The notes: generated by a model from the sequence alone, not told the origin. Numbered from the stretch's first letter, positions 31,980 to 64,000 are shown. The stretch is 64,000 nucleotides of DNA from Raillietiella orientalis (GCA_036172245.1 JAYWIR010000054.1:868001-932000); one strand, 5' to 3'. Translations and numbers: made by a program.

Positions 31980-33115
31980 GGCAAACGAGTGTGTTGTTTG
32001 CTCGCTCACGGCTTCTAGGTACTCATCTAATTAGTAAGTGAATGTGGGGTTCTTGGTAATGGCAAATGCAGAAATACCTGACTCCACCACCAAGAAAGGC
32101 GAAGGTGAGATGCCCACATCGAGCCTTGAGGCTATGAAAGTGGGAAAATCTGCTCCCACAGACTTGTCCCTTGCGCCAGCTATTGCATGAAACGCCGTGG
32201 CTGCCGCTCCGTCGCCTGCAGCCATGCCAGCCCAAAGAACCTAAGTGGAGGCAGGGTACAATGTGTCTCTCTTTTATAAAGCAGGCAATTTATACTCTCC
32301 CAAGAGCGCAAGCTCCTTTGCGAAGTAACTGCACACTTTTACTGTGCCTGAAGAGGAGCTTCTCGCCCTCAACATACGCAGCGGGGCCAGTTCATTGAAT
32401 TGATATGCAAGAAGTCAGCTCCAGTTTAAGCACTGTTGATGACCCTCGTGATGGCTGGAGACACGAAGCTCCTAGATAACGACGGACCTCTCTATAGTGG
32501 TCCTCCTACTCGGCATCACATTTCGGATGAGCAAAAGATCCCATCTGGTGAGAATTTGAAGAATTCGCAACGGTGCACGAGCTGTGGGTCAATCGCCCAA
32601 CCTTCGTAGAGTAGGGCGGGCTTCCTGGCGATTTCCTGGAAGAGAACATCACCGTTCATGAGGGATGTGCTTTGCTCCACAGACTCCACAGACTGTCTGG
32701 GAAACAGTAGACATGTGGGACCAAATACTACGGCTTTTGTAATTTTCCAGGCCAACTCAAAAAGAGATGACCGAATATTCAATACCAGCTGTGCGGAACC
32801 ACGGGTCACACTCAAAATATGTGCTTCCAGCGTAATGTCCGCGTTGCGGCTGCAAAAAGCAGCGAGAAGCGCGTGGCCAAAAAAATAAGGAAATCCGCTG
32901 CGAAAAGAGCTGTGGAGAAAGCCACCACCAAACCACAAGCCAAGGCCGCCTTGCGTACCTGAGCCAGAAAAGCTAAGAACGTCGAGCGAGGCAGTTAGGA
33001 CGGATGACAGGTGGTTAGAGGTAAGAAAAGCTAGAAAATGACACAAAAGAAAGGGATCACATAATGCAGCGGGAATCCACCTCTTTGCAAAAAAATAAAA
33101 AGCTGCCGCGTAGCC
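31980..33115 (+). mobile_element. T1: decayed Tx1-like element (alpha-like), 5' part with ORF1 from 32059, interrupted by T2
   Basis: 'VEAGYNVSLFYKAGNLYS' and decayed zinc knuckles match alpha ORF1; many stops. Confidence 0.8.
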
Positions 33116-34165
33116 TTTTGCCACTCTAATGAGCGCGAGCGTTTATTTAAAAAGTACAAACCGTCTGGGAACCTAGTTTCTAGACAGGGAAAAGGAAGTT
33201 CGAGGGGAGGGCTTACCACTACGCAATTAGTCACATTGAAAGTCCGAAACGGGAGGGAGGGGAACTAGGAAACATACAACGACCGTTGCATCGCTTCAAA
33301 ACCGGCGTTGAGTGCCGGCGGTCTTCTTCCTGACTTCGTTCACCTGAGGCTACCTAGCAGTCGTCCGCAAACTCACGTCGGGAATCCAAGTGAGCTCTCC
33401 GGAAACAGTTCGCGATTCCAACAGGTAGCAGTCCATGAAGATGGCTTGGATGCAACAGGTCGTTCAGATGACCGCACCTAGAGAGAGACCACCGCGCTTC
33501 AAAAAGCGGCGCATGATATCGATGGCAGCGTCCCCCTGGTGCAGGTGCACTAAAAGCCGTCTAGTCACAGTCCTTGGAGAATACCCCAGTCAAAGAGCAG
33601 GCACTCTGTACCGGAGCGGACCGTTCTGATCTGGAAGCGAAACAAGCTGCTAGCCCCCTTTCAGTTAGCCAAAGGGAGAGAAGTTGCTACGAAGGTCTGA
33701 TAGAATTCTGCATTCAGGCCGTTCTCCCTTAGTACTTTCCTTTTTCTGAGCGCCTTGATGGCCAGCGACAGCGGCTCTTCCAGGCTCTCTCGTTCCTCCT
33801 CCCCTATCGCGTTAGTGCACCATAACAGTCTCTGAAAGAAGGCTTTTTTCCATTGATGCATATGCGTAGAGGGAGCAGTAAAAATCGCGCAATAACCGGC
33901 GCACATCCAAATGTGCCGAGCACTTCTGTCCTTGGTCGTCCAACAAGCAATCTCTCCCGGACTGCCAGACCTTATGCTCTACTCTGTCCTTCACTTTTGC
34001 CAGTCTTCGGACGTCAGGATGTCTGCAGGCGGTGCGTTTTCAGAAAAGCTTTGGCGAGGTCTGCGCACTCTCGATAAATAATAATAGGAGGAGAGTTAGT
34101 GGGAACTGTTCTCAGAACTCATACCAAGAACTTGAAGAGATCGCAATCCTCGAGCGTCTGCCCTG
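33116..34165 (-). mobile_element. T2: decayed, internally deleted Tx1-like element (family gamma), 3' part
   Basis: 'WQSGRDCLLDDQGQKC', 'GLNAEFYQTF', C-terminal 'MRRFLKRGGLSLGAV' as in T10 ('MRRFYTRGGLSIGAV'); AATAAACG terminus. Confidence 0.8.
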
Positions 34166-37100
34166 AACTGATGTGTTCTGTCTAGGCACTGGTCTGGGGA
34201 AACTTTATTTGTTTGTGTGTGTGTGTGTGTGGTGGTGGATTTGGTGGCGGAAGAGTCAGAAATGCCTGTTATCATCACCATCAAAGGCCAGGGAGCGACA
34301 TTCTCGTCACCCTTAGAGGCTATGGTGGTGGGAACATCCATCCTCACAGTATCGTTGCTTGAGAAAGCGAGGACATGAACGTCGTGTCTATGGCTCCATC
34401 GCCAGTTGCTGCTGAAATGAGAGCCCACTTGGAGTAGGGGTACAGTCTCCCTCTACTCTATAAGGTAGGCAATCTCTATTCTTCGGAGAGCCCTCGTGCC
34501 TTCTCGAACGCGCTGAGCGTCCTCTGCGTTTCGGAGGGAGAGCTGACGGCTATGACCATCAGAAGCGAGGGGCAGTACGTGGAGGTGATCTGCAAGAAGG
34601 CAGATCTTGCCCAACATACCCCTGTGCTGATGGGCCTTTGTAGGCTCTTCCGTATGACAGAGGACCGCCCTATGGTGTTCATCTGTTAGGTGTTACCATG
34701 GAAATGAACAAGGAAGAGGTCCGCGAGGAACTCCCAAAAGTAGGGACGGTCCACGCACTGTGGAGAAACCGGCTTCATTCCTGAAGCATGCGGAGATTCC
34801 AACTGACCTCGCAGCCATGAGAATAAAGATCTGCAAGAGCTGTACGCTACCTCACAAGCTGAAGGTCTCCGGCGAGTCCGTTGACCTCTGGTATGTGTGG
34901 AAACCACATTACTGCGTGCATTGCAGCACGTCGGGTAACCTGAAAAAAAGGTGCCCTCACTTGCAATGCCAGCAATGCAAGGAATCCGAGCACACTCTCC
35001 AGGTGTGCCCACCAAATCAAGTCTGCGTCGCGTCCGCACGCAATACGAAGTAGCGCGAGGCAAAAACTAAAAAAAATAGCAGCGCGAGCTGCCACTAAAG
35101 ACGCGACTGCCGCACTCAAGAAGGTCAGCTCCGAAACCCCTGCGGAATGAGAGGGCATGAGAGGAAGACTTTCAGAAGCACAAAGACTGGCCAGCCTTCC
35201 AAGAAGACAGGAGAAGGCAGAAGGAAAACCCTCCCGATATACCGGAGGAGATGCCCACCCCAATTCCTCCTTCACTGGAGGAGAAAAACCCCGCGAAAGG
35301 CAAGAAGCCAACCACGAAAGACAGGAAGACCATGATCCGGGAAGGGCCCGAGGCTGATAGTCCCCGCCAACGAGACTCCCGAGAGGGAAATCGGGTAGGA
35401 GACGACCATGAACGAGCTGCAGGCCAAGATCAACGACCTGCGCTCAACGATTAGCGATGTCGCTAACGAAGAGCAAAAAGGACTGGCATTCCAGCATTCC
35501 AAGGAGCTGCTGGAAAGCCCAAGGCAACCAGCAATCTCGCCTCAGGTGGAGATGCACCTGGAGGAGCAGGTGTACGTCAGCCTCACCTCCTTCGTCCTCT
35601 CGGATGATAACCGGAAACAGGGGGAGGTAAAAACTCCAGCGGAAACGCTGAAGAGCTTTAAGACGACTGCATCCCAGGAAGCGGAAGCCAACGCAGCCAG
35701 CAGCTTCACCTCGAAAGAGGAGAATCCCGAGGTGGAAACAGTAGCAGTCCAGGAAAGCAGAGAGCAGACCAAGAGAGACAGGCGCGTCCAGACAAGGGCA
35801 CAACTGTCGAAAATAAAAAAGGTCAAATAGACCGTCCCAGCCGTCCGTAAATGATCCAATACCTCTCGTCAATGTGGAAGATCGGGTTCGCATCCTAGAA
35901 TATCAACGGATGTACGCATCCGACGAAGAGAAGATACATGAAGTTTCTCCTGCGATAGGAAGACATCGCCTGCCTGCAAGAAACCCAATTCATGTCATTG
36001 GGAGTATGCGAAGTACTACAAAACGGTCTACAAGTCGATGTTCATATCAAGCAGGGCTCGAGCTGTCGCAAAGGTGTGGCCATTCTCGTACCGATCATCC
36101 TGGAGGTGTTCCATGAATGAGAAGGCCGCGTCGTGGGTCTGAATATGGCATGGTTCGGAAGCGTACACCTGTTCGTGGTGAACGTCTACGGACCACTGTT
36201 TAAGAAGTAGACTTTTGTAAACTCCCTTGCGCAGCTAATCAGGAACAAGGTCACTGCGAAAGACGTGGTCATGATCGCGGGCGACTTCAACGTTCGTCTG
36301 GATGGCACTTGCCACGACGAGACGGAAGTTCTTATCATTTGCCTACACCTTGCGGACGAACTCGCACTCTTCCGCACGGAAGCGAGCATGACCTGCATCG
36401 ACTACGTCTTACACTCGGAAGCTCTTGGTAATCGCAGTCAGGGGATCCAAGAGATCGACACTGGGATCTCGGACCATCCCCTGTTGAAATAAAGAATGAC
36501 AGCCAGGAATCCCAGGAAGAAAAACGTGGTAACCTGGGCAGCACTCATCTGCATGCTCGAGTGGTACGAACGTTCTCTTGCGTACCAGGGCGTCGTAGAA
36601 ACCATCCTCGCCACAACCAACATCCTGCGCGTATACGACTAAGAGATCCTGAAACACCCCTTGCACGTCTTCTCCACCCTTCAATATGGCTACAAGTATC
36701 CCCGGGAGGAAGCGTACAGGGAGACCCAGCAACTCCATCCCTACCACTCTGCGTACTGGTAACAGTACCAGGGGCGCTTCCTCGATAGGAGTGTTACAAA
36801 GGACATCGGACGGCTGGAAAAGCTCAACCTGGCAACGGACATCTTTCATGTCCGTTAGCAGGACAAAGTTTATCGGAACTCGGAGCAAGTGCTTGAAGTC
36901 TTTCAACACCACTACTCCGAACTATTCAAAAAACGGACTCTGGATCTGGGAGACCAGGAGTGGATTCTCCTTTTGTGGAGAAACGCTTGGCTTCCCAAGA
37001 ACAAAAAGAACTCGATGAACACTTCACCGTCGACGAGGTCAAAGCGGCGTTTGATGGACTGCGCAAGGACATGGCAGCGGGCCCCGACAGGGTACTTGTC

Positions 37101-39206
37101 ACGCACTACCAGGGACACCTGCCTGCTTACTGGCGCTTGTTCCATCAGCTGCTAGACTGCATCTACCGAGAAGAACGACTGCCCGCCTCCTTTCATCGAA
37201 GCAGGATGAGCCTGCTCCCCAACAGCGGCGGGGACCTCCGCAATGTCAATCAATGGAGGCCCATATCCGTCCTGAACTCGGACGCGAAATGGATAGCGAA
37301 GATCTGGGCAAATCGACTGAAGAAAGTGCTAAAGTCAGTGGCTTCCCCCGCACAGACGTGTGCCGTTCCAGGTAGACGCATGTGGCATAACCTGAACTGC
37401 GTCCATACCCTCCTGGTATGCAATCGTGTCCTGGGCAAGCACTTGGTACTGGGCTTCACCGACATCGAGAAGGCCTTCGACTCGGTGGTCCACACCATGC
37501 TGCTAAAGATCCTGGGAAAGCTGGGCTCCAAGAAAGATTCGTGCAGCACGTGGCTCACATTCTGGAGGAGGCGAATTTCTCGATCACCGTGAACGGGCTA
37601 TCGTCGCGGATCAAAATGCAAAGAGGAGTCCGACAGGGAGATGCCCTGAGCCCGATGTTCTTCGTGCGGTACATGGAGGCAGTTAGCGCTTTCGTTCAAC
37701 ACGGGAGCCGACTCAGGGGTATTATCCTGCGAGAGGAAGAACCAAACATCACGCACCTGACCTACGCCGACGACCTGCTTTTCGTCATGTCTGACCAGTG
37801 GGACGCAGAGACATTCCTGGAAGTCGTACAAGCCATGTAGTGCGACCTCGGACTGAAAGTGAACCCAAACAAGTCCCATCTGCTAGCCGTGGGAATACCG
37901 GACGTTACCGTCCTTTATGCCCACGGCTTTCAGATTGCGGACAGTGTTAAGTACCTGAAAGTTCTCTTTGGCGACGATACAGCGGTTCTGGTTTCGCAGC
38001 AGTGGTTGGCCATCCTCACCAAGCTACATGAAGAAACCAGCCAATATGGTGGTAAATCCTTCTCGCGGAAGGACAAGGCTAAACTCTGGAACGGGATGAT
38101 GGCGGCGAAGTTTCTCTTCGCTGCGTCATTTCTATCGTTTCCCCCGAGGACGGCAAAATACCCGGCCTACATCCAGAGGAACTTGTCTAGCGGCAGAAAA
38201 TCGAAGACGAAGCCGGAGTCCCTGTGTCGTCCGTGGATGTTAGGAGGTACCGGCATGAGCGATGTCGCCTCTGCCATGAAGCTCCAGGACCTCAAACACT
38301 CGTCACTGAATGGGACGAGTGGCCGTTTGCGTTCCACCGCGCCTTTGCAAGATTGGTACACGGAACCGACGGCCTCACGTCTGCCCTGGAGCTCACCGCC
38401 GGAGGCTGGGACAAAATGGACCCTACATGGCCCCGAATCCAGAAGCTGATATGGACGTTAAAACTGCGTATTGAACCCAGAAGTAAGGAGATATGGAACA
38501 AGGAACTCACTAAAGTGATCCCGCTGTTCATCAGCGTCCCTCGGGACACTGAAGCATGAATCACGAAGACCAGGAAGATAACCATGGAAGCTTCCGAGCT
38601 GAGAGACTGGCGAACAACGTGGTTATACACGCCCGCGGAGTCCTCGCCTACAAGCGTGAGTTCGAAGGGAGGATAACCCACAGGACCCGGAGGTTTTGGC
38701 AGGATCAAGGCTCCCAGTGGTCCAGGGTGAACCTCCTGAACAACAATCCTCTTGGTCCTCAGAATACAACACCGTCCGAGGCGATGCAGAAGATGAAGTC
38801 CCAGTTAGGCAATCCCGTCGTCGACGCACAGGCAATCAGGACGGTCCTATGGAGATCCTCGTTGCTACCGGACATTCAGTACTGCCTCCTGATGTTTCAT
38901 CACAGAGACATCCTGTGTGGCACGAGGTTTCAACACTAGACTGGCAATCCCGACGACGACTAGTCCCCAGGGTGTGGGTCCATCGAAGATTAACTACACA
39001 TCTATACCTGTAGAACCCTCGCGAGGAACTGTAGAAGCATCAAGAGGGCGGTGCGGATGGAGGAGACGCCGAAGATCCTGAGAGGACTCTCTGAAGGCGA
39101 GTTACAACACCTCCGTACGAGTGACTGTGGCTTCCTTCATGAGAAGTATTCTCATCAGGAGAGCCATACTTTCCAATGGTGAAGTATGCGTGCCCTGGAT
39201 GTTCTG
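34166..39206 (+). mobile_element. T3: near full-length decayed Tx1/L1-like element (ORF1 ~34262-35850, ORF2 from 35851)
   Basis: CCHC knuckle 'CVHCSTSGNLKKRC'; EN 'IAGDFN','IDY','SDH'; RT 'WRPISVLNSDAK','DIEKAFD','GVRQGDALSP','YADD'; frameshifts. Confidence 0.92.
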
Positions 39207-41349
39207 TTTTCACCCGGGTAAGCCGGAACTTTTATTATTTTAAAAAAAACGGAATTACAATTATTAATTGCAGTCGATTGATTTTTCATTGTTTTTGTGT
39301 TCCTGTCGGAACACATTTCCGTATTGTTTTGCAATTGTTCACCGACTTGAGTGCTGGTAAGGCCTACTCCATTCGCGAAAGGGACGGGAAAAAGGAAAAA
39401 AAAATACAAAAAAAAGGAAAAAAAAGGCTTGGGGAACATTGTTTATTGGGAGGGGGAGGGAAGGGAAGGGATCACTGTTCGCCGAGAGGAGGCCTCTGCA
39501 TCTGGTTTCGGATGATAACAAGTGCTGGCAGAATTTTCCTCAGCCGGCGCCAACGGGAAGCCTTCTCCATGGAGATGACCGCCCAGTGGATGGCATTCCG
39601 ACTGCTGTGGCCTCTTATCGACGCGTTCCACTTGTCCAGTATTCCTCGTATGCAGCAGAGAACTGCAACACATGCGGCACATGACAGGGAGTTCCGCATC
39701 AAGAGGCGACGAAAAATATTTTTAAAGTCGCCCTCTGTTTATGGCCGACGAGAGTCCATCCCACGTTCGGCGGAGGGCAACACATTCGATGAGTAAGTGG
39801 GGAAAGGTCTCCCTTTCCCCACACTCTGTACAATGGGCATCCAATCTCCCCAATGTCCAGTGAGACAGGCGTGCTCTGCTCAAAAGTCCCCAATGGAGCT
39901 CAAGCATCGCCGTCTCCTGCCAATCCAAAGGGAGGATGCCACTGTCCCAAGACGCCGGGGGTCACTTCACCTCCTCCGGAGGCATGCCGAGAAGCTCGCT
40001 TCAGCGCACAATTTCATTTCGCGGGACACTCGGGGCTATAGCGTCCGCTAGTTCCCGGGACATCCACGCCTTCATTGGTTTTTTCCTGCCTCGGATGAGT
40101 CAGGACACTTCGGAACAAGCCTCCTCTTGGCTGTTCCTGGCTTCTATAAGGGAGGGAGAACGAGGGCAAGAGGGGTGAATGAGGCCCACAAAATCTTTTG
40201 CGGGTTGCATACGATCTCCCGCAGGGGCTGGCCAGCGTTCCTGCCTCGACAAAGGCAAGAGAATTCCACCTCGCTGGAGCGGTTGATTTTTGCCCACGCG
40301 GAAACAGACTCCTGAAGGCAGGTAGTCCAGTTTGCGGGGCTGCAGGAGATCCATGGGCTGCTCCTCACCAGGGCCACCAATTCACGTTGCTGTGAACCAC
40401 AATGGTAAAGACTACCGTCGCTGGCTACGAGGACTGAAGTCAGTCCATCGCAGCCGCTTGCCCTGTGGGCTAGGAGTTGTATGGGCGCACACCATAGTGC
40501 TGTCCAATATTTTGCCGCAAAGGCAAGTTTTCTTAGTTGGAGCTGACACTCCATGAGCTCCAACGTCGGGAAACCAAGTCCACAGTCCCTGCGTGGAGCG
40601 CACATGTCTTTAAGTCGGACGCGGGGCCTCTGGCTACCCCAAAGGGCTTTCCTGATGAGGCCCCTTGTCCGTGTCCTAATTTGAAGAGGGCGAGGCACAC
40701 AAAAAGTAGAGGGCGAAGGAGAGGGGCCGCAAAGCCGTTTCACACCGCGGCATGTTCCCGCTAGTAAAACTTGCGGGAACGGTCCGATCGCCAACTCCAC
40801 CTTTTGGAGATGGTCGGACCAGGCTTCTGCGCTGCAGAAGTTCCCAAACGGAATGCCAAGGTACTTGATGTATCCGCCCGTGAAGATCCCCAAGCGGATC
40901 CAGTCCGATCGTCCTGCCCGCGACGAGTCAGAGAAGATGATCGACGACTTCGTCCTATTCACCTCAAGGCCTGTCCCGCGGCGTAGCAACTCGAAAAAAT
41001 TCTCGAGCGCCGATGCCGGAGTGGACCCGGGGAGCAGGAGCAAAAGGACGTCCGCATAGGCTGACACGGCAGGCGTGCCGGGACGCAAGCTGGGAAAGGT
41101 TGCCGAAGTCTCCCTGTATGCTCTCAGCACCAACTCAAAGTAGATGCTGAAGAGCAGGGGACTGAGGCTGTCGCCCTGCCGGATGCCGCGAAGAACCGTC
41201 ACGCCGTACACGTGCCGGCCGCTGCAACAAATATTGATGTATGCGAAGCAACAGCAGGAGCGCAGATAGGCCAGGAAGTCGGCCGGAAATCCCATGCCTT
41301 CCAGAAACTCTAGGAGGAGTTCCTGGTCGACGCAGTCGAAAGCTTCACG
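39207..41349 (-). mobile_element. T4: Tx1-like element, 3' half, cut at the RT 'REAFD' motif by T5
   Basis: ORF 40144-41403: 'EAFDCVDQ..GIRQGDSLSP..YAD..KYLG'; 3' terminus AATAAAAGTTCCGGCTTACCCGGGTGAAAA. Confidence 0.92.
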
Positions 41350-42641
41350 CCCGTTAGGACGGACGTGTTTCCTCGGTGCTCCTCGTACCGGGAACCGTCC
41401 CAAGGTGTAAGCTTCGTGTGTGTCGGTGGTCGATAAGGCAGCGCTGCCTGATAGGACAACCAGTGCGTGTCAGGGGGCGGCGGCAACGTCGCCTCCTGAG
41501 AAGATGGAATGCCAGGGGGTGGCGGCAACGTCGCCTCTAGAGAAGATGGAGTGCCAGGGGCGGCGGCAACGTCGCCCTCAGTAACGAAGAAGATGGGGGC
41601 ATCCGCCCCCACACAATCGGTCCCCGCTGCAGAGGGGGCGTGGAGCGCCGTGGTGTCGGCGAAATCGCCTGCAACCGCGGCGATATTATCGGCCTATGTA
41701 GAAGAGGGGTATAACCCTTCGCTTTTCTACAAGGTAATCAATCTTTAGAGAGCGCGCGCGCCTTCTCGAAGGGGATGCGAGCTCTCGATGTGAAAGAGGA
41801 GGAGCTCTGCGCTATGACCATTCATAGCGGGGGGCAGTACGTAGAGGTGATCTGCAAACATGGAGATCTGGCCCAACGTCTGCTCAAAACCCCCGTGGTA
41901 ATGGGGACACGCAGGCTCCTTCCCATTACGGCGGACCACAGTATGGTGGTCCACCTTTTAGGAGTTACCGCGCGGATGCGAAAAGAACAGTTACGCGCCG
42001 CGTTGCGAGAAGAAGCTACGGTAAATGCAGTATGATCCAAGCCTAGTGCTCTCGACGACTACACAAAAGTTCAATGCGGCCTCACGGCTACATGAGTAAC
42101 CGTCCGCGAGGGCTCTACCCTTTCCCACAAACTGGTGGTCGGTAGCGAAAGCGTCGACCTCTGGTAAGTGGGGAAGCCCAAATACTGTGGCTTCTGCAAC
42201 ACGTCGGGACACCTCAAAAGGAGGTGCCCCAACGTACAGTGCAAAGTATGCGGAACAATGGGCCACAAGAGAGAGGTATGCCCACAAGCCGCTGTGCGCG
42301 TGGATTCCGCAAGGATTAAAAAAAAACCCACCCAGCTACTGCAAAAAAGGCTAATTGCGAAAGCTGCTGCTAAAGCTGTGCCACTCACGCCCATGTCTTA
42401 GGCCTCAGCCGAGACCCCGGCAACAAACGGCAAAAGGATCGAGGGAAGCTGCAAGGAGCCTGGATGGCAGGCTGCAACAGCGAAAAAGAAAAGTCCAAAA
42501 AACAGCGCCAACTTGAAAAAAAGCTCGCATACCAAAATAAAAAACAGGAGGGTAGCAAGACTTTAAAAGAACGCAGCGTCATCGTGGAACGTATTAGCGC
42601 CGTTCGCGAACGCCGCAAGGTACAACTCGCTGCTACCGACG
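41350..42641 (+). mobile_element. T5: family alpha element, 5' UTR + ORF1 part, interrupted by T6
   Basis: Nucleotide similarity to 44747-46010; knuckles CGFCNTSGHLKRRC / CKVCGTMGHKREVC. Confidence 0.92.
41471..41596 (+). repeat. 42-bp tandem repeat x3 in alpha ORF1 N-terminus
   Basis: CAGGGGGCGGCGGCAACGTCGCCTCCTGAGAAGATGGAATGC units start at 41471, 41513, 41555; two units in T7 and T9. Confidence 0.85.
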
Positions 42642-52272: not shown

Positions 52273-55200
52273 ATGCCGGGAATCTCCTCCCGCCGTCGTC
52301 TGCGCATCGCCGTTTGGAACGTGAACGGCATGACAGACGCCGGCAGGAGACGAGACATGGCCGCCCTTCTCGAGTCCCACGACCTTGCGCTGCTGCAGGA
52401 GATCCACGTGATCTCTGCAGAACAAGCGCAAGAGATCGAATGGATCTGCGGAGAGCGGATATGGTACATGTGTGGGAGAGCGAGAAGTTGCGATGTCGCC
52501 TACCTGCTTCGGTCAGCCGTCGAGGCCGCGGCTCGGGGCGTACGGTTCGACGATCACGGTCGTGTCGGCCAGCTGACTCTCAGGTGGTCCGACTCGATCG
52601 ATCTGATCGTCACGAACATGTACGCATCGAACGGCAAGGACCTGATGAACAGGAGGGCGAGGAAAGAGTTTTTTATGCCCTCCGGCGAGACTGGCTGACC
52701 GAAGCAGGCGTGCGGAATGCCCATCTGGTTGCAGGCGATTTGAACGTTCGCCTGAAACCAGATGGGCAGAATCCCGAGCGTGACCTGGTCAACGAGGTGT
52801 GCATGGCGGTGCACACCTGTAATTTGTTGGCCAGTGCACCGGGGATGGAAGGCAGCATTGACCACGTGTTTCTTGACGAGCACCTGTGCCCTCGCGTGGG
52901 CAGGCGCGGCAAGTTACCGTGCGAGCTGTCCGACCATCGCCCGCTTGTCCTCGAGATCTATTCGCGCGACAGGGGCCCCCCTACGTCAGCGTGGCATCTC
53001 CCAGGAGACTGACTGAAGCTCCTTGACGCGGCGGAACATCTCCGCACGTTCATACGGAGCTTCAGCCTGCGGACACTCCAGGATTGGACCGCTTCAAGCG
53101 GTCAGTCCAGGAGTTCTGCGACCAGTTCCCTCTGCAACGCCTACGTACGGGTTTTGGGACCGAGGTCCGTAACGAACGAGCCTACCTGCAGGCCCGTCGT
53201 TACGCCAGGACCCCCGACATCCGCAGGCTAACGGAATACAAAGCGGGAGCCGAGAGGCAAGCCTGGCAGTCCGGATCCGCCAGCTTACTGGACGATCAAG
53301 GCCAGGAGCACTCGGCACCTGTCCAAATCCGCGACCTGCTGCGGAGTTACTTCTCCTCCCTGTATGCCAGGGCACCTCCGGAGAGGAACGTCTATCGACT
53401 ACTGCTTCCGGAAGGCGCTCCAGCGATCGGGGAGGAGCAGAGAAAGACCCACGACGAGCCTTTCACGATGGACGAGATCCTCTCGGCCATCGGAAAGCTC
53501 ATGAGGCGAAAGGCTCCAGGGGAGGACGGCCTGCCCGCGGAGTTTTATCAAACTTTCGCGGCTGAGCTTACCCCCCTGGTACAGCAACTCACCTTGCTGA
53601 TACGCGAAACAGGTGACGTTCCCACCCCGTTTCGTTCGGCAAAGGTGCGGCTCTTCCCTAAGGGAGGAGATCTGAGGAGCTTGAACAACTGGCGTCCCAT
53701 CACAATAGTGAATACGGACGCCAAGTTGCTGGCTAAGGTTTGGGCAGAGCGTCTGGGAGGGGTTGCCAACATCTTCATCATCCTGGAACAAACATATGCT
53801 GTTCCCGGGCGAAGCATGGAGGTTAACCCGTTCCACGCTTCCACCTGGCTGGAGCTCCAACATGAAAGGAGCTTGGTGCGCAACCGGAATTCCGGTGCGT
53901 GCGCCGGCAATGGGTTGGATGGTCGGGTGGGGGAGGGAGCCCTTGCGGTCGCAATCGACTTGCGAAAAGCATTCGAATGCGTCGACCAGAATTTCCTTCT
54001 GGAGCTTCTGGAACGCTTGGGCTTCTCGGCCTCATTAGTGGCCTATCTGCGCTCCTGTTGGCGCGACGCGCTCATCAAGCTTACTTTCAGCGGGCAGACC
54101 GTGCACGGCGTGCCGGTGCGGCGTGGGATCCGGCAGGGAGACAGCCTGATCCCCTTGCTCTTCAGTAGCTACATTGAGTTGGTACTGAGAGCGTACAGGG
54201 GAACTCTGGCGCACCTGCCGCACGACTGTGCCGGTACGTCGGCCGTTTCAGCGTACGCGGACGACCTTCTGCTTCTGCTCCCTATGTCCACCCCGGCTGC
54301 GGCGGTCGAGGAGTTCTTCGACCTGCTGCATCGGGGAACCTGAATTACTGTGAACAGGGCGAAGTCGTCCGTGATGCCAGTTGGTGCGGCGTGGACAGGG
54401 CAGCAGGACTGGGTCCGTTTGGGGATCTCCACGGTGGAATACTTCAAGTACCTTGGTGTGCCGTTGGGGGACTACTCCCCTGCGAAAGCGTGGTCCGGCT
54501 GCCTCCAAAAAGTAGAGACGGCGATCGGCCCGTTCCGAGGCGGCAGGTTTTTCCTGCCTGAACGGGCGGCGGTTTGGAACACTTTCGCATCGCCTCTCCT
54601 CCGCCCCCTGCTTTTTGTTTTCCCTATCACAGAGAGAATTAAAAAGAGGACAGAGGACCTCCTCCGTATCGCCCTTTGGGGCAACATGAGGGTCCAAGTC
54701 CGCTTAAAGGACTTGTGCGCTTCTCGTCGGGATGGTGGTGTGGGCCTCCTGACGCTGGAGCGGCTGGAGCTTCAACTCCAGCTCCGATTGTCGGCACTCG
54801 TTTCAGAGTTGTGGTGCACCTGTTGGTGCGTCCCTGCACGTCTCCTTCTAGAGCAAGCCACCTGCAAGACGGGACTGACGTCGTTTCTTGCACTCCGTCG
54901 CCGCGTCAACCGATGCGGACTCCAGCTACGGAGGGTGGCTGGGCTGTATCGCAAAAACCCAGGATCGCTCACCTGTCGCCCTTTGAACGGTAGTGCCTGG
55001 TTGCAGGAAACCGTTCGAACGTGGGGAGAATTCGGCATGCAACGCTCCCAACAGGAACGAAGGTTCCTGTTTAGGGGTAACAGAAGTTGCACGCTTCGCG
55101 AGATCCTGGAGGATCCAAAGAAGAGAGCGTGTGCAGGAAGAACCCCCCTCGCTGCTGCGCTGCCCTCCCTGATAAAAGATCTGGACAGCGATGTTGCGGC

Positions 55201-55852
55201 GGAGTGGGTGGTTACAGTAGCAATCTCCGGAAAGGAGAAGAAGATAGGAGAGTGGAAGATGGGCCAGTTATCAGACGCTGCGTCCCCGAGTACGCCTCCC
55301 AATGGACTTCTGCGCTCTTGCGCGCTGCTCGATGTTACCATTGAACATCTGAAGTGGCCCCCGGATCTCATGAACACTTCCACCCTCCCCTTAAAATGGC
55401 AGGAGTCGGCTCTCCTGTTGCAGCACTATGGACTCCCCTGCAACGCCCGCCGACACCATTGGACCTGGGGAGCGGTGGACCCCAATTGCGTCAGGTGTGG
55501 GGAACGGGAGTCCCTCCCCCACCTGCTAGTGTATTGTGTTGCCCTTCGGCCCCTTTGGTTTCTCTTTGCTGCGGCCATCGAAATCCCCTGCGGCAACCCC
55601 AGAAACGCACTGAAAGCCCTCTTCGTTGCCGACGCCCTTCTGCCCGCGGCCTCGTTAGCAGATTTGAGCAGTCTACGCAAGATCGTCACCGCTTGGAGCA
55701 AGGCTACGGGAGGACAACGCGACCAGGTTGCCATCCAGCCAGCCTCCCAGTTTCTGAGGATGGCTTCCCGATGGCCCCACCTGGATCGAGGAATACAGAA
55801 GGAGCTTGCCGGCATTCTGCAAAGGATGCAACGGCCCCACCAGCAACTGTGA
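52273..55852 (+). pseudogene. T7 ORF2 (APE-RT-Zn) with several frameshifts/stops
   Basis: Pieces 52273-52698, ~52680-53012, 53084-54343, 54350-55852 carry EN, RT (YADD) and zinc motifs. Confidence 0.92.
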
Positions 55853-57484
55853 TCCCTTCGCTTACCCTATGAACTTTCCTTTTCTTTTTTTGTTTTGTTT
55901 TTTGTTTTTCCCCCTACTCTCTGCTGCCGTGGTGGACCGTACCGGTCTGCGAACCGGTGATCCAACAGGCTCTGTGTTTCTTCGTTGGTGGCTGGAGCAA
56001 TGGTCCAGCCACCGCACGTCTTTGTAAAAGTTTATTTTACAATAAACGCCCCAAAGAAATCCGGGTGAAAATCGAACGCCTTGCGTGCTCCAGGGTGGAC
56101 GTGTTTTCTCGGTGCTCCTCGTGCCATGAAGTCTCCCCCAGTGCAAGCGTCGTGTGGTTCGGTGGTCGTTCAGGCAGCGATGCCAGACGCGACCACCAGG
56201 AATGGCCAGGAAGCAGCGGCAACGCCGCCTCCAGAGGCGATGGAGAGCCAGGGGAGGCGGAAACGTCGCCCATAGAGGCGAGGGAAGGGGGGGCATCCGC
56301 CCCCACAGAATCGGTCCCCGCTGCAGCGCGGGCGTGGAGCGCCATTGTGTCGGCGCCATCGCCTGCAGCCGCGGCGGAATTGTGGGCCTATGTAGAGAAG
56401 GGGTACAACCCCTCATTGTTCTACAAGGTAGGCAATTTATATTCTTTAGAGAGCGCGTGCGCCTTCTCGAAGGGCATGCACGCTCTCGATGTGAAAGAGG
56501 AGGAGCTCAGCGCTATGACCATCCGCAACGGGGGTCAGTACCTTGAGGTCATCTGCAAAGATGCAGAGCTGGCCCAACGACTGCTTAAAACCCCCGTTGT
56601 GATGGGGACGCGCAGGCTCCTCCCCATTACGACGGACCGCAGCATGCTGGTCCACCTGTTAGGCGTAACCGCGCGAATGCGCAAAGAACAGGTTCGCGCC
56701 GCTTTGGAACAGTTCGGAACGGTCCACGCACAGTGGACGAAAGGAAGTCCTTTCGAGGACTACACGGGACTGCAACACGGCCTCACTGCTGCGCGCGTGA
56801 CCGTTCGGGAGGGCTGCACTCTTCTTCACAAACTGGTGGTCGAAGGCGAAATCGTCGACCTCTGGTATGTAGGGAAGCCGAAATACTGTGGCTTCTGCAA
56901 TACGTCGGGCCACCTCAAAAAGGGTTGTCCCAATGTGCAGTAATAAGTATGCGGAACCATAGGACACACGAGAGAGGTGTGCGCTAAAGCAGCAGTGCGG
57001 GTGGTTTCCAAGAGAATCCTTAAATAACGCCCGGCTTCTGCAGAAAAGGCTGGCGGCGAAAGCTTCCGCGAAGGCTGTGCCACCCGCGCCCAAGGCCCAA
57101 ACCGCACCCGACACCACGGCGAACAACGCCGAACAATTCGAGGGAACAAGCTAGGAGCCTGGGTGGCAGGTGGCTACGGCCAAAAAATCAAAGAAGGAGA
57201 GGAGGATGGAGAAAAAGCTCGCGTACCGCCAGCAAAAACAGGAGGCAAGCGAGCAAATTAAAGAATGCAGCGTTGTTGTTTATTACTCTGTTGCGCCGGG
57301 TCGTTTATTATAATATCAACTGAGAACTGTGTTTCCAGGCAAGGGGAACAGAAAATGGGGAGTAGATTTCCCGGAACGCAGTTTGGACACACTGAGAGTT
57401 CGGAACGGGATGGGGTGAGACAATAAATAAATAAACTGGGTGGGGGGGCGGGGACAGGGGCATACCGTCTAACCGTTCCTATTC

Positions 57485-60400
57485 TCAGAACCGGCGGTGA
57501 ATGCCGCCGATCTGCGTCCTCACTTCTGCTGCAAGATGTGGCCACCCGGCAGCCATTTGCAGGTTGCAGGCTGCGCTGTCGGGGACCGATGTTGGGACTG
57601 CTCGCATCTGCAATACGTGGCGGGCCCTGACAATGGCGCGGACGCAGCAGATGATTGCGACGACCGCTCCAATAGAGAGTCCGCCACGCGTGTAGAAGCG
57701 TCGCATCCAATCCAGTGCGGTGTGTCCGGGGTGCAGGAGCGCTGAAGACAGCCGCCACCACAGCTCCTGGAAGGCACAGCACTCAAACAGCAAATGCGGA
57801 AGCGATTCCACCGCTCCGCATTTGGCACAGTTCGGGGACGCAGCTCCCCCGGAAATCAGGTGCACCCGCTGGTTGCAGTACAAACCCCAATGCACCAGCA
57901 GAAAGGCGTCCTGCCTCCACCGAAGGGGGAAGAGAGTCGCGTCCAAACACGCAGAAGAGACCACAAGTTCATCGGTGGGCACCCTGAGGAGCTCACTCCA
58001 CCGGTGAAGCCCCTTTGCAAGAATGCGAGGTGTGGCAGCGTCTGCCACTTCGCAAGTCCGCCAGCCGCCCAGCACTCGGGTTTCGCCTGCGATTTCGCAA
58101 GTGATCTCCCACCCCGCCGGCAGGTCACTGTCATCTCGCACCATCAGTGCACACAGTGCTTCGGCGAGTGGCGTAGCGGCTAGGCGTGTCCACTGGTCCT
58201 GGTCTTCCAGCACCTCCCCCACTGGACAGTATGGGGAAAGTTTCACGCAACGGAGTTCCAAACAGGACACATCCTGTTGCGCTGCCCACGACGATAAGGC
58301 TTCCTGCCTTTAGGCGTTGAAGTTCGTCGGCCGGCAGGAGATCCACTCAAGCTTTCCCAGAAGCGTGGCGAGCTGCTTGAAAGGGAAGCCGAATCCTCTC
58401 TGGAAGCGCTCCGTGCGCAGATGCAACGAACGTAGTCCGTCGCCACCCGTGCTGCGCCGCAGCAGCAGCCGCGCTGAAGCACACCAGGGAGTAGTCCAGA
58501 GCTGCGCACAAAGTGCCAGCATATGGAACTGCACTAGCAGTCCGATCCGCTCCAGCGTCAGGATGCCCAATCCTGCATCCCGCCGAGGAGCCGTCAAGTC
58601 CTTCAGGCGTATCCTGGACCTCGCCGGTCCCCACAGGGCGTCACGCAACAGGCGTTGCGCCCGGCGCTTAGCCGAGTAGGGAGGGGGACAAACAAAAAAG
58701 AGGGGACGGAGGAGGGGGGCAACGAAAATGTTCCACACGAAGGCCCGTTCCGACAGGAGAAACCTGCCGCCTTGGAACGGGCCCAGAGATGTCTCGGTCT
58801 TGTGATGGCAGTCCGACCACGGTTCTGCTGGACAGAAAGCGCCTAAGGGAACGCCGAGGTACTTCAAGCACCTGCCCGTGAAGATCCCCAGGCGGATCCA
58901 GTCAAACTGCCCCTTCCACGTAGAGCCAACCGGTACAACGGTTGATTTCGTCCTGTTCACGCTCAGGCCCGCTCCCAGACGAATGAGATCGAAGAAGTCC
59001 TCGAGCCTGGACGCCGTGGTGGACATGGGCAGCAGCAGGAGAAGGTCGTCAGCATAGGCGGCCACGGCCGGTGTTCCCGGGCAGGAGCTCGGCAGGTTGG
59101 CCAGCGACAGCCTGTACGCCCTCAGCACCAACTCAAAGAAGATGCTGAAGAGCAGGGGGCTTAAGCTGTCTCCCCGCCTGATACCCAGCCGTATAAGAAC
59201 ACCGTACACGTGACGCCCGCTGAAAGAGATACAGCATAACGCGTGGCGCCAGCAGGAGCGCAAGTAGGCGATCAGGTGCGTCGGGAGGCCTGGGCGTCCC
59301 AGAAGCTCCAGAAGGAGGTCCTGGTTTACGCTGTCGAACGCTTTGCAGAGATCGACGGCGACCGCTAAGGCTCCCGGCGTTCCATCGTGCCTTGAATACC
59401 GCCGCTTTCCTTTGGCAGCGGCGATTTCGGCTGCCTGGCTCTGCTGCGCCACGCGCTGCAGCAACTCGAACCATGTTCGCGTGAAGAAGAGATTCGTGTC
59501 CATGGACCGCCCCGGAACAGCATAAGTCTGCTCCGGACTTACCAAGGACTCTGCGATTCTCCCCAGGCGCGCGACCCATAGCCTGGAGAACAACTTGACG
59601 TCCGAATTCACCAATGTGATCGGACGCCAGTTGCTAAGGTGGCGCAAATCACCGCCTTTCGGTAGGAGCCGCACCTTTGCTGAGCGGAAAGAAGAGGGAA
59701 CATCTCCCGTCTCACGCATCAGCGAGGAAAGGCTTAGCACCAGGGGGACGAGCTCCGCCGCGAAGCACTGAAAGAACTCCGCGGGCAGGCTATCCTCCCC
59801 AGGCGCCTTACGCCTCTTCAGGCCCGCTATGGCAGAAGATACTTCTTCCGCCGTGAAGGGCCAATCCAATCTGGCGCGTTTCTCCTCGTCGATAGCAGGG
59901 TTGCCCGTCGGAAGAAGCAGCTCGGAGAGACTGCGTTCCGTGGGCTCCTCCGCGTACAACGAGGAGTAGTGGCGCTTGACTACGCGGTGTACTTCGGCTG
60001 CAGCCAAACATTCCTGGCCAGCGTCATCGAGCAGACAATCCGCTCCAGACTGCCAAACCTGGCGCTCGGCCTGGCCTTATACTCCGCCAGACGCCGGACG
60101 TCCTGGCATCGTGAAAAGGTACGCGCCTGCAGATAGGATCTGCTGTTCGCGACACCCTCCCCGAAGCCGCGGGGAAGCAGGTGCAAGGGGAACCGGCAGC
60201 CGAACTCGCGGACCGATCTCTTCAGATCGTCCCAGTCCTCGAGTTCACAGATGGCGAAGCCCCCTAGGTGTTGGCGGAGATGCTCCGCCGCCTCCGAATT
60301 GCTAAGCCAGTCGGCCACAACCTCCAGACATTCATCGGAGGCCCTTTGCCAGGCGGGAGGAGCTCGAAATCCAGTCTCGGATGATCCGAAATCGCGGACA

Positions 60401-61046
60401 GCAGGCGCCCTCTCCGACCTACTCGTGAGAGCTGGTGTTCATCGAGGAACGCATGGTCCGGAGATCTCTCCATCCTGGGCTCACCAGCAAGCAAGTTTTG
60501 CACGCGCACGGACGCGTATACCTCGCTCACCAGTTGCTTCTCCCTCAAGCGGCATCTCTCCTCTGTTAGCAGGTGGACGTTGAAGTCTCCTGCAAGGAGG
60601 TGCGCCACGTTAGGGCCGGAGTCAGCGAGCCAGCGGCTGCGCAGGCCACCCAGGAATGCAAGTCGCTGGGCGTAATGCCGGCCGCCGCTCGGCGCGTAGA
60701 TGTTCGTAACGACCAGGTCGATCGATTCGGACCACTTGAGGACAAGTTGGCCCACACGACCTTCCTCGTCGAAACAAACGTTCCGGTTCGCCTCCGCCAC
60801 CCTGCCTCGGACGAGGAACGCGACTCCGCACGTGTGCGCGGAGCCTTGCCGCCAGTGAAGCGTCCCGCCAGCGCGCTCTTCCAGATCCAATGCCTGCCGT
60901 ACGGAGATGCTATGTATCTCCTGCAGCAGCACCAGATCGAACGCGCGCAAAGCGTTGGCTACCCTCCGCATTTTGTCAGCATCACGTAGCCCGCTGACAT
61001 TCCAACAGGCTACGCTGACGCGACGAGCGGACGCGAGTCCACGCAT
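57485..61046 (-). pseudogene. T10 ORF2 (APE-RT-Zn) with frameshifts
   Basis: Pieces 60264-61061 (WNVSG, LQEIH, GDFN, SDH), 59980-60318, 58310-60007 (DLCKAFD, YADD, YLG), 57485-58270 (CAKCG..HLLFEC). Confidence 0.92.
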
Positions 61047-62989
61047 CACTGCTGCGGACATGACGGCGTGCTCCTCGCCCCGTCCGGCGAGAAGTCAGCT
61101 GGTAGGAGAGCGGATTGGGAAGTGGAATCGCTCCCGTTCGCCGCCACATCGCGCCCAGCTGAGTCCTGGGAGCCGAGGATCATCGCCTTGGTCTCCGTGC
61201 AGGAGCCGGAACCGCCTTTGGAAACAGGCTCGTGCTTTCGCACTATAGCCCGGCGCGCTACCGGCTTACCCCGGGATGCGCGCTCCATTTGTTTGCACTC
61301 GGACTCCACCTCGGAGTCCGAGTGCCTGGCGCGAGACTGGCGTTTTGCCAGTCTCTTTTTGTTTCGGCAGCTGGAGGCTTGCCCTGCCTGCGCGGGGGTC
61401 GTCGCAGTCGCCAACGCAGCTTCCGGAGCTTTGGCTTCCGCAGCCGCCCTCTCGCGCGAAGCGACGGAGACAGAGCACGCAGCCGTAGTGCGTACCTGGG
61501 TACGCACCTTCTTCGGCGTGCTTCTCTTTTGCCTCCCACCTACCTTAAGGATGGGGAATATTGAAAGGTCAACCTTCTTCTTCCCCTTTGTTGGCGTCCT
61601 GGAGACTCGAGTCCAGCCCGCGTCGGGGATGCCCTCCTGGGATGCCGAAGCCTCCCTCAATTGTTTGGCCGGAGATGCCGTCTCACGTTTCGCGCTCGCG
61701 GCGGGAGACGGCTCCGTCCCCGTTACGCACTGCACCTGCTCCTTAGCCGATGCGGGCGAAACGGTGGTCATTGCCGTCGTCCCGCGAGGCGCTATTGCAG
61801 CCTTCGCTGCTCGTGCCTTCGGCGTGGAAGACGTGATCTCCACCGCCGTAGGAGGAAACTGCCGTTCAGAGGCAGCTCCGAGGGTACCCGCGCACGGTTT
61901 CCCGTGTGCTCCGCTGGACGCGCAAGCGGACGCGGACGGTTCAGCAGCCTTGATTGAGTGCGTGCCCGCACTCTTAGGCTGTTTCGAAGGGGGCGATTTG
62001 CCCCCAGAGCGACGTGGCATCTTTCCCGTCTGCGCGGTTGTCTGGGATGGTGGCTTTCCTGAAGCAACCGCGCCCTTTTTCGCGGGACCGCCACTTGAAG
62101 ATGCCCCGCCCTTCGCGCCTGATTTCTCCCGTGGCACAACGGGGGATCTTTTCGGCGCGGACGGGGTTGATTGTTGGCGGCTTTTCGCCTGCCTCTTTCT
62201 CTTCAGCTCGGCGCACTCTTTCATGCAGTGGCCGAGCTGTTTACAATAGCGGCAGTTGCGTGAAGGGCACGTCCACGGACGGTGGCCCTCGGCACCGCAA
62301 ATGCCGCAAGCCGGTCGCTGACCGGCAAATTTAAGGTAGACGATCGCATCGCCCACCTGCAAGTGCGGAGGCATTTGCCTCCTATCCGCCATGGTGACAC
62401 GCGCCATGGCAAGTCCGCTGTGGAGAGATGCAATCCTTTTGATCGGATTTTCTGCTCCCCACAGCGCGTGCACCGTGGCGAATGCACTTAGTGCAGCGAC
62501 GAACACGCGATCGGGCGTGTCCACCTGGACGGCGGATAATCGGAACACGAACGACTGGTCCATGGCCGACGGGACCACCTCCTTCCCGCGGATATTTAGC
62601 GGGGTGCGGAGAAGGCGCTGGACTAGTGATGCCTCTTTGCAGTGCACGTCCCAGTGTCCGAGCGCGTTAACCGGCATGACGGCCAGGAGGTCGTCCTTTC
62701 GATCCCCGACGCGCAAAAGCTCGTCCCACAAATTTTCTCCGACCCCGTCGGAGATAGAAGCACTAACCGGATAGCAGAACGCAGGCTTGTAGCCATGGGC
62801 TGCATATGCCTGCAGCTCTGCTTCGTCGGGCGGTGCTCCGTTGGCTGCCGCCGCCTTGACGACGGCGGCGAAGCTTCTCGCCGGTGGCGAGACACAAGAA
62901 TCAGAGGCGGACCGGACATCTGGAGTAGAATCTCCACTGCCAGTAGTAGCCTTCACATCCATCTTTTGCTGCAGGGGCTCCGTGGACAT
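61046..62989 (-). CDS. T10 ORF1, intact gag-like zinc-knuckle protein (647 aa)
   Basis: Open frame; CGICGAEGHRPWTC and CRYCKQLGHCMKEC. Confidence 0.88.
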   Translation of the reverse strand: MSTEPLQQKMDVKATTGSGDSTPDVRSASDSCVSPPARSFAAVVKAAAANGAPPDEAELQAYAAHGYKPAFCYPVSASISDGVGENLWDELLRVGDRKDDLLAVMPVNALGHWDVHCKEASLVQRLLRTPLNIRGKEVVPSAMDQSFVFRLSAVQVDTPDRVFVAALSAFATVHALWGAENPIKRIASLHSGLAMARVTMADRRQMPPHLQVGDAIVYLKFAGQRPACGICGAEGHRPWTCPSRNCRYCKQLGHCMKECAELKRKRQAKSRQQSTPSAPKRSPVVPREKSGAKGGASSSGGPAKKGAVASGKPPSQTTAQTGKMPRRSGGKSPPSKQPKSAGTHSIKAAEPSASACASSGAHGKPCAGTLGAASERQFPPTAVEITSSTPKARAAKAAIAPRGTTAMTTVSPASAKEQVQCVTGTEPSPAASAKRETASPAKQLREASASQEGIPDAGWTRVSRTPTKGKKKVDLSIFPILKVGGRQKRSTPKKVRTQVRTTAACSVSVASRERAAAEAKAPEAALATATTPAQAGQASSCRNKKRLAKRQSRARHSDSEVESECKQMERASRGKPVARRAIVRKHEPVSKGGSGSCTETKAMILGSQDSAGRDVAANGSDSTSQSALLPADFSPDGARSTPSCPQQ

Positions 62990-64000
62990 CCCAGTGGACG
63001 CACTCGGGCACACCACACACAAGAAGACGGAAAGGAATCACGCTCGTGGAGCAACACAGAACACGTCCGTGCACCGTTGTCGTCGAGCGTATTCCCGACC
63101 GCTGCGAAAAAGAACTCGCCGCTACCGTCGACCACCCCTCTGTTGACTCTCTCAACAGCGAGGGGAGCGAGCCGGCGGCGGCGTCCGTCATCAACACCAC
63201 CATCAATGACGTAGCCTTCGCGCGAGCCGCGGAGGAGCTGGAAGCCTCGTTGCAGCCAGAACCCACCATGGCTGGCAAGAATGCCGTAAGGCGTCCGGCC
63301 TCCCCTCAAGAGTACCCACTTCCGACCCCGAGGTGGAGGCCGGAAGCGCAGCCTCCGTTTCCACGGCACCGCGCAAGAAGGCTGGACGTAAGTCCACAAA
63401 GTCAACGAAGCTCGTCTCCCCCGTCGAAGGGGAAGAGATGGCTTCCGCAAGCGAGGGTGCCATCAGCGTGGGAAACTCTCGGGACCCGTCGCCCGAGAGA
63501 ATTCCACGCTCGGACACGGAGGATATGGTGAGGATGGAGGCCGAACAGGTACCCCAGGCGCCTGAAAAGGCCGAAACCCCCATGGACATCCCGCCCGCCT
63601 CAAAAGAGGCGGGCTCCCCCACACCTTAATCTTCCCAGCAGTAATGCCGGGAATCTCCTCCCGCCGTCGTCTGCGCATCGCCGTTTAGAACGTGAACGGC
63701 ATGACAGACGCCGGCAGGAGACGAGACATGGCCGCCCTTCTTGAGTCCTACGACCTTGCGCTGCTGCAGGAGATCCACGTGATCTCTGCAGAACAAGCGC
63801 AAGAGATCGAACGGATCTCCGGAGAGCGGCTATGGTACATGTGTGGGAGAGAGAAAAGTTGCGGTGTCGCCTACCTGCTTCGGTCAGCCGTCGAGGCCGC
63901 GGCGCGGGGCGTGCGGTTCGACGATCACGGTCGTGTCGGCCAGCTGACTCTCAGGTGGTCCGACTCGATCGAACTGATCGTCACGAACGTGTACGCACCG

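Follow-up and report, generated by a model that had tools for sequence, protein, structure and literature searches.

Does one long interspersed nuclear element (LINE) recognise a short block of codons in another LINE as its landing site? The question is raised by a 64,000-nucleotide (nt) stretch of Raillietiella orientalis DNA (GCA_036172245.1, JAYWIR010000054.1:868001-932000; this whole stretch is referred to as the window), the right half of which is a nest of eukaryotic retrotransposons of the kind that lacks long terminal repeats (non-LTR). The target-specific LINEs known so far land in ribosomal RNA genes, small nuclear RNA genes, microsatellites or telomeres and, in a few cases, in DNA transposons or LTR elements. 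In an earlier note on this DNA, two elements of a family termed gamma (T2 and T10) were described as inserted antisense at the same codon of open reading frame 1 (ORF1) in two elements of a second family, termed alpha (T1 and T9), and a long-lived target specificity was proposed from this, aimed at the very family that attacks reverse transcriptase (RT) genes. The elements were mapped by blastn of the window against itself, tblastn, alignment of element ends and reading of the junctions (Table 1). On this evidence gamma is probably a LINE with sequence specificity, its landing site being a conserved motif in the ORF1 of a rival LINE.

Gamma elements in alpha ORF1

The uninterrupted alpha element A1 aligns to two parts of T9, between which ~5.8 kb intervene. 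In the window self-comparison, identity is 89.7% between A1 44733-45946 and T9 56072-57279, and 90.9% between A1 45964-46139 and 63092-63267. The string ATTAAAGAATGCAGCGTTGTTG ('IKECSVV'), after which the interruption had been placed, is present at 57257-57278, and T10 divides the T9 ORF1 codons K-E-C-S-V-V from (C-T-)V-V-V-E-R. T10 is flanked by two copies of a 14-bp sequence that match at 12 of 14 positions. As the same sequence is single in A1, T10 is a genuine product of target priming, and its entry duplicated 14 bp. The homologous site is also empty in the alpha-like element E, and it is unoccupied in the further nest element B. The gamma element had been given an end at 63085; this position is essentially the end of the right-hand duplication, and T10 itself ends at 63069.

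T10 is essentially full length, since its 5' end opens at the family 5' motif GGACGTGTT. Its 3' end reads ...AATAAACGACCCGGCGCAACAGAGTAATAA(AC), without poly(A). Its ORFs measure 658, 265, 565 and 261 amino acids (aa), and Pfam recognises both an endonuclease (PF03372, E = 2.1e-14) and an RT (PF00078, E = 2.7e-19); the C-terminal Cys/His motif is found in the tail of ORF2 as CAKCGAVESLPHLLFEC.

T2 lies antisense to T1, as T10 does to T9, and the string ATAAAAAGCTGCCGCGTAGCC ('IKSCRVA'), after which T2 was said to begin, is present at 33095-33115. When the 3' ends of the two guests are aligned, T1 reads ...CGCGTAGCCTT / TTGCCACTCT and T9 reads ...AGCGTTGTTGT / TTATTACTCT. Within an uncertainty of no more than 2 nt, both junctions fall at one nucleotide. 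The assignment of T1 to the same codon rests on collinearity together with the motif: after the anchor WQV..KKS, T1 continues in one frame for 28 codons and ends in IKSCRVA, and A1 continues for 31 codons and ends in IKECSVV. T1 also carries its own counterpart of an alanine/lysine-rich stretch of A1, at ~32900. The common ORF1 position and orientation put forward for the two guests are thus borne out by the collinear alignment and by 3'-end junctions that agree to within 2 nt.

What is left of T2 comprises its 3' end and C-terminal domain (33118-~33690) and ORF2 residues ~235-394 (~33670-34161). The ~1.4 kb that run from the RT up to the C-terminal domain are lacking, and the two remaining pieces are directly adjacent at ~33670-33700. 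The second piece, with amino acid identities of 45-53% to T10, 47% to B and 43% to A1, leans slightly towards T10 but does not discriminate between families. No continuation of T1 was found directly behind T2, in 33540-33720.

The 3' part of T2 is more telling of kinship. The C-terminus said to mark the gamma family (MRRF..RGGLS.GAV...RRF-stop) is indeed private to T2 and T10, being absent from B, C, D and A1. T2 reads IMRRFLKRGGLSLGAVI.TTCCIQAI...TQRRF-stop and T10 reads WMRRFYTRGGLSIGAVVAIICCVRAI...IHRRF-stop; the C-terminal translation of T2 carries MRRFLKRGGLSLGAV...RRF-stop. Over the last 473 aligned nt T2 is 61.1% identical to T10, versus 42.8-44.2% to B, C and A1. Judged by these alignments, T2 and T10 form one family and are each other's closest relatives in the window. 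They are also its only two gamma copies, and both (2/2) occupy the same nucleotide in the same orientation.

The sequence that they enter is a conserved island within a variable, lysine-rich linker of ORF1. It reads KECSVVVER in A1 and T9, KERSVIVER in E and RECTVALER in B, and it has been kept although these elements are overall only 41-45% identical.

Proposed site preference and its alternatives

The junctions, the duplication, the orientation, the kinship of the guests and the intact sites in the closer relatives of T9 are observed directly, and they can be accommodated in one mechanism. The gamma endonuclease would nick the sense strand of alpha ORF1 within (K/R)-E-C-x-V-x-x-E-R, at ...GCGTTGTTGT^CGAGCG. 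The first nick would fall at ...GCAGCGTTGTTGT^CGAGCG, as the primer strand for an antisense guest is the alpha sense strand. In duplex form the target would be ...TGCAGCGTTGTTGTCGAGCG..., with GT^CG as the preferred nick. The freed 3' hydroxyl (OH) would prime reverse transcription from the A-rich, non-polyadenylated tail of the gamma RNA, ...GAGUAAUAA, and a second nick on the other strand, 14 bp upstream, would yield the 14-bp duplication. Priming from the alpha sense strand would mean that gamma always lies antisense to alpha. We infer the order of the nicks, the seat of the specificity in the gamma endonuclease and a preference that extends genome-wide. Both the ORF1 motif entered by gamma and the RT motif entered by alpha (see below) would suit a long-lived specificity, since a target of this kind cannot drift freely.

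Several observations weigh against homing by gamma. The sample consists of two gamma junctions, both within one 64-kb window, so that of the target specificity and long life that had been claimed, the independent insertions at one site and in one orientation are what speaks in favour, and the small number of copies is what speaks against. Tandem gamma copies sharing one target duplication were not seen in the window. At T1, the last 40 nt taken alone miss the site, their best local match in A1 being a non-collinear lysine/alanine-rich stretch (45723-45740); the match of the T1 motif is weak at the nucleotide level (14/23), and the second junction of T1, with its duplication, falls outside the window. 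Nor do all related elements keep to a single site: C and B are 74.5% identical at the nucleotide level in the 3' region, yet the two use different sites, C entering E antisense 19 codons past the gamma site and B entering A1 in sense orientation ~45 codons further on, and D and T3 use other sites again. As to whether the site was entered twice, an approximately unbiased (AU) test did not reject a clade of T1 and T9 (log-likelihood difference 5.3, p = 0.218), and the divergence of the host pair (44% nt) is similar to that of the guest pair (39% nt), as co-divergence would also predict.

The recurrence might also reflect a hotspot that gamma does not encode: the ORF1 motif may form a structure or be nicked or broken repeatedly, possibly by the endonuclease of another element, and any LINE cDNA could then enter there. 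We consider this unlikely. The entry of the B-like, non-gamma element C into E, antisense and only 56 nt (the 19 codons noted above) downstream, hints at an insertion-prone stretch of alpha ORF1, and GCGTT occurs a few bases upstream of the cut in both the alpha and the gamma nick contexts. The exact site, however, is occupied by two gamma copies only, with C, B and B' (a short B fragment) at other nucleotides, and a staggered duplication of 14 bp, the same length as that of alpha, is expected of an element-encoded endonuclease.

A second alternative accepts the shared site and denies the second insertion: T1/T2 and T9/T10 would both descend from one ancient nested unit, through segmental duplication or through alpha being copied with its gamma insert. 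The similar divergences (T1-T9 55.9% and T2-T10 61.1% identity) and the survival of the T1 plus T9 clade in the AU test would suit such an origin, but the topology is uninformative in that test because the T1 branch is very long and decayed, and the case for independence consequently rests on rates, intact ORFs and empty sites. Duplicates share an age, yet in-frame stops number 14 in 277 aligned codons of T1, 4 in 318 of T9 and 0 in 219 of T10 ORF1, and the T1 branch, at 0.96, far exceeds that of T9, at 0.11; the far greater decay ascribed to T1/T2 is plain from these counts and from the many stops of T2. T9 is much closer to A1 and E than to T1, with ORF1 amino acid identities of 84%, 72% and 44% and nucleotide identities of 89.2%, 77.1% and 55.9%, respectively. 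A1 and E are uninterrupted at the gamma site and carry neither insert nor scar, so that a unit older than the T1-T9 split would need two clean and precise losses. The 658-aa ORF1 and the long ORF2 pieces of T10 could not outlast neutral decay of the T1-T9 order, and these ORFs would not be under selection when lying antisense inside a dead alpha element. The surroundings also differ: upstream, T9 stands in tandem behind A1 and the sequence before T1 does not read as an RT-motif-A target; downstream, T10 is followed by the rest of T9 and T2 by T3; and no flanking sequence is common to the two sites beyond the elements themselves. Paralogy of the two pairs as copies of one nested unit, which the earlier note had raised against its own proposal, is thus disfavoured by the closeness of T9 to A1 and E, the empty sites and the intact T10 ORFs, with the AU result and the similar divergences still fitting co-divergence. 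A single insertion is very improbable, and we conclude that there were two separate ones, an old one of T2 into T1 and a recent one of T10 into T9.

That the agreement is mere coincidence, gamma having no sequence specificity and landing mostly in LINEs through regional, chromatin or safe-haven bias, is least probable of all: nearly every element of this deep nest lies inside another, C, D and T3 sit at different sites, and the T1/T2 and T9/T10 pair was chosen after the fact from ~10 junctions, but were a second 3' junction to fall uniformly, it would meet the first to within 2 nt and with matching orientation at a probability of ~4e-4 in one 5.6-kb element and ~4e-5 in the window (figures that ignore this choice; the former becomes ~0.02 or less when ~45 junction pairs are allowed for), the two coinciding junctions belong to exactly two members of one family, and sister families reuse one site, with duplications.

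Other families of the nest and their targets

Homing by gamma into alpha ORF1 would not stand by itself in this locus. E, A1 and T9 all begin directly behind the sequence TCGAA(A/C)(A/G)C(C/T)T(G/C)(C/A)CG, which is RT motif A (codons x-K-A-F-D) read in antisense. The elements entered at this motif, D and C, are only ~72% identical to each other. A1 and T9 are arranged in tandem around a 14-bp duplication, and because T9 starts directly after the second copy, the alpha site in C has been used twice. The description of alpha as a family that attacks RT genes therefore holds for three alpha 5' ends at one nucleotide of RT motif A, with A1 flanked by its duplication. The junctions are strong evidence that alpha is a site-specific LINE splitting the catalytic motif of rival reverse transcriptases. 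The 5' flank of T3 was also considered as an alpha target; its slight resemblance is to be set aside, as this flank corresponds to T2 ORF2 codons ~228-238 and not to RT motif A. T3 entered T2 ORF2 near codon 235.

B' and B form a sense-oriented tandem towards the C-terminal end of A1 ORF1. The sequence CCTCCGMGGC occurs there three times (46135, 46230 and 51892), which indicates one site used twice by the B family. Gamma is most likely one of several related LINE families that use each other's conserved coding motifs, alpha in RT motif A and B in the C-terminal region of alpha ORF1, which suggests that the families target one another and not the host genome. It is conceivable, if somewhat doubtful, that these families form a guild of mutual parasites, which together build a Russian-doll nest, and that the endonuclease of each is adapted to a functionally constrained coding motif in a rival. 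If so, alpha would cut K-A-F-D of the RT and gamma K-E-C-S-V-V-V-E-R of alpha ORF1; each insertion would gain a safe haven and at the same time put a competitor out of action, and the specificities would last, as the targets cannot mutate away.

Two further junctions were read in the course of the mapping. C enters E at 42640/42641, antisense, after L-A-A-T-D, and is the third antisense insertion within 60 bp of alpha ORF1, by a different family. The 3' end of D abuts T3 ORF2 at 39205/39206, antisense, in a C-P-G-C-S-V zinc-motif codon block.

Table 1. Elements of the nest, domains of T10, and target sites (positions in the window).
Feature	Position	Strand	Remarks
T1 (alpha-type ORF1, 5' part, decayed)	32056-33117	+	tblastn with A1 ORF1 residues 45-388, ~40% identity; ends ...IKSCRVA at gamma junction
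T2 (gamma, decayed)	33118-34161	-	~1.4 kb missing internally
T3	~34170-39205	+	
D	39206-41349	-	3' end to RT motif A
E (alpha-like)	41350-42640	+	
C (B-like)	42641-44746	-	3' end to RT motif A
A1 (full-length alpha)	44747-56071	+	carries B' and B
B' (nested in A1)	46145-46229	+ (sense to A1)	~85-bp 3' fragment
B (nested in A1)	46240-51891	+ (sense to A1)	full length
T9 (alpha), left part	56086-57279	+	5' untranslated region and ORF1 to K-E-C-S-V-V; 5' end directly after copy of alpha target duplication
T9, right part	63070-64000, runs off window	+	remaining ORF1 (C-T-V-V-V-E-R...) and ORF2 start; 90.9% to A1 45964-46139, 96.0% to A1 51899-52629
T10 (gamma)	57280-63069	-	5790 bp
T10 ORF1	61046-63022	-	658 aa
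T10 endonuclease	60264-61061	-	PF03372
T10 RT	58310-60007	-	PF00078
T10 C-terminal domain	57485-58270	-	
Left target-site duplication of T10	57266-57279	+	TGCAGCGTTGTTGT, 14 bp
Right target-site duplication of T10	63070-63083	+	TGCACCGTTGTCGT, 14 bp; 12/14 identical to left copy
Empty gamma site in A1	45933-45946	+	TGCAGCGTCGTTGT, single copy; putative nick after 45946
Empty homologous site in E	42572-42585	+	CGCAGCGTCATCGT
Alpha target in C RT motif A (antisense K-A-F-D), left A1 duplication	44733-44746	+	TCGAACACCTTGCG, 14 bp
Right A1 duplication, between A1 3' end (56071) and T9 5' end (56086)	56072-56085	+	TCGAACGCCTTGCG
RT motif A site in D, abutting E 5' end (41350)	41336-41349	+	TCGAAAGCTTCACG

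The order of nesting, from the outside inward, is T1 > T2 > T3 > D > E > C > A1/T9 > B/T10. Until the innermost elements are reached, only the left-hand part of each element is present, which gives the appearance of a Russian-doll nest with its right half beyond the window. Under this nested model, the 3' end of T9, a third copy of TCGAACGCCTTGCG and the antisense 5' half of C would be met to the right of 64000, followed by the rest of E starting ...ACCTCCCC... and then the 5' half of D; outermost on that side would be the rest of T1, opening with a duplicate of about TGCCGCGTAGCCTT. Guest and host belong to different families in 8 of the 10 insertions (T2/T1, T3/T2, D/T3, E/D, C/E, A1/C, T9/C and T10/T9). 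Antisense insertions also number 8/10, which is suggestive but not significant (one-sided p = 0.055).

The nest, from ~31.7 kb to 64 kb, has a G+C content of 50-63%, versus 34-48% to the left of ~31.7 kb. Within it G+C climbs inward, from ~50% in the outer, older T1/T2 to ~60-63% in the inner, younger elements, which is consistent with decay after insertion. The CpG observed/expected ratio is 0.77 in T1 and ~1.0 in T9 and A1.

Element class, relatives and known systems

In complete members of the nest, ORF1 has two CCHC knuckles, and ORF2 joins an apurinic/apyrimidinic (AP)-type endonuclease (PF03372) to an RT (PF00078) and carries CX2CX7HX4C at its C-terminal end. Every ORF1 shows two knuckles of the pattern CX2CX4HX4C, and the CCHC knuckles of Air2 are matched by residues 284-321 of A1 ORF1 (E = 5e-6). 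In B, PF03372 and PF00078 both lie in one 977-aa ORF, whose best match among solved structures is human LINE-1 ORF2p (E = 5.9e-46), with R2 proteins at ~1e-13; A1 has a weak match to PF13966 (E = 3e-4) that falls below the curated cut-off. The families differ from one another by ~30% at the nucleotide level (blastn), and their ends have in common GGACGTGTT near the 5' end and, at the 3' end, AATAAACG...GGGTG.AAAC without poly(A). Target-primed reverse transcription has left its marks in the 14-bp duplications around T10 and A1 and the 10-bp duplication around B' and B, and there are no terminal repeats. By their domain content, the elements are classed as L1-like non-LTR (LINE) retrotransposons with an AP-type endonuclease.

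A protein search with the T10 RT gave seven matches, only one of them close (P0001, 60% identity, on a 2.9-kb contig) and the others at 32% or less; the only named match is a plant RT-domain protein (E = 2e-7). A scan of metagenome contigs with an RT alignment kept 80 loci and found no close relative among them, all being 21-32% identical, which marks them as unrelated LINE groups, and a scan of prokaryote genomes gave three loci at 23-26% identity, again with no close relative. One independent public sequencing run (X1) contains 12% of the sampled words. Its contigs were placed on 55500-64000, where 247 of them are 80-100% alike to T9/T10 (8 at >= 99% and 134 under 90%), and this LINE group therefore occurs in at least one other data set. 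Among the X1 joints listed and the 6 of 168 loose ends shown, none touches 57279/57280, which carries no weight for or against site preference.

Precise nicking of one conserved sequence, no requirement for poly(A), and long persistence on a target that cannot change freely are features of the R1 and R2 elements of ribosomal DNA. The endonuclease of R1Bm is the subject of PMC1919474. Gamma resembles R1 and R2 in its apparently precise entry at a conserved site, in a 3' end without poly(A) and in a target that would not be free to change; the target of R1/R2 is a multicopy host RNA gene, and here it is a gene belonging to a rival retrotransposon. Functionally constrained motifs that cannot escape by mutation are also the landing sites of homing endonuclease genes and mobile group II introns. 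Unlike these, gamma has an entirely different enzymology and no splicing to restore the host gene, and its insertion kills the target copy.

Closer in behaviour are the Tx1-clade LINEs, several of which land in other transposons. According to Kojima 2015 (PMC4494074), Tx1L enters the piggyBac-type Tx1D, Tx1-Mar enters Mariner-N4_AMi, Tx1-9_AMi enters Harbinger elements, and Tx1-8_Crp and Tx1-4_AMi enter LTR retrotransposons; tandem copies that sandwich a duplication, a recognised mark of target-specific integration, are described there for target-specific Tx1-mobilised elements. Set beside that account, the elements of the nest share an AP-type endonuclease, repeated entry at one position of another mobile element in a fixed orientation, a defined target-site duplication (~14-16 bp) and the lack of a host gene target, and tandems are found here for alpha and B. 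The nest differs from it in that gamma enters ORF1, and alpha the catalytic RT motif A, so that the target is a protein-coding motif of another autonomous LINE from the same superfamily. Targeting also appears to run both ways between families here. The Zepp and ZeppL elements, L1-clade LINEs of green algae, form clusters by nested insertion into existing copies, according to bioRxiv 10.1101/2020.06.13.149070, which cites Higashiyama 1997. The resemblance, which is drawn from description, lies in L1-like LINEs piling into one another to give a dense, gene-free nest beside ordinary sequence. Zepp, however, is described there as targeting its own copies, in arrays made mostly of 5'-truncated 3' ends, whereas here distinct families, ~70% identical at the nucleotide level, enter each other at defined codons and several copies are full length. 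Self-nesting of the Zepp kind with arrays of truncated 3' ends was not found in the window, where only B'/B repeat a site (in A1) and T10, B and A1 are full length.

No described LINE that targets the ORF1 or RT motif of another LINE was found in the literature searched, which had most subscription journals outside its coverage and is not proof of absence. The same holds for a LINE lineage homing into a conserved coding motif of an autonomous LINE whose own family homes into the RT catalytic motif. Should it extend over the whole genome, the pattern would clearly exemplify natural competition between transposons by means of sequence-specific insertion. It would also explain the growth of gene-poor LINE nests, possibly of centromere-like clusters, without harm to host genes, and would offer a source of endonucleases with new, long recognition sites.

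The window yields no tRNA with ARAGORN and no Rfam family, and the insertion targets are thus not disguised RNA genes. Directly upstream of T1, at ~31735-31745, stands GGTTCGAATCC, a canonical tRNA T-arm motif at which neither ARAGORN nor Rfam calls anything. Older and strongly decayed LINE 3' fragments lie in the lower-G+C left half, at 696-1122, 2871-3600, 17604-18313 (+) and 20467-20934 (-). Two of these, at 17604-18313 and 20467-20934, are alpha-like, the latter being 78% identical to the A1 3' region. No recognisable RT sequence was detected in the flanks of their 3' ends, near 18313 (+) and 20467 (-), even with relaxed tblastn. The only clear host-type gene of the window is an intact 493-aa ankyrin-repeat ORF at 24049-25530 (-), with ~40% G+C, whose database matches are generic, at ~30% identity.

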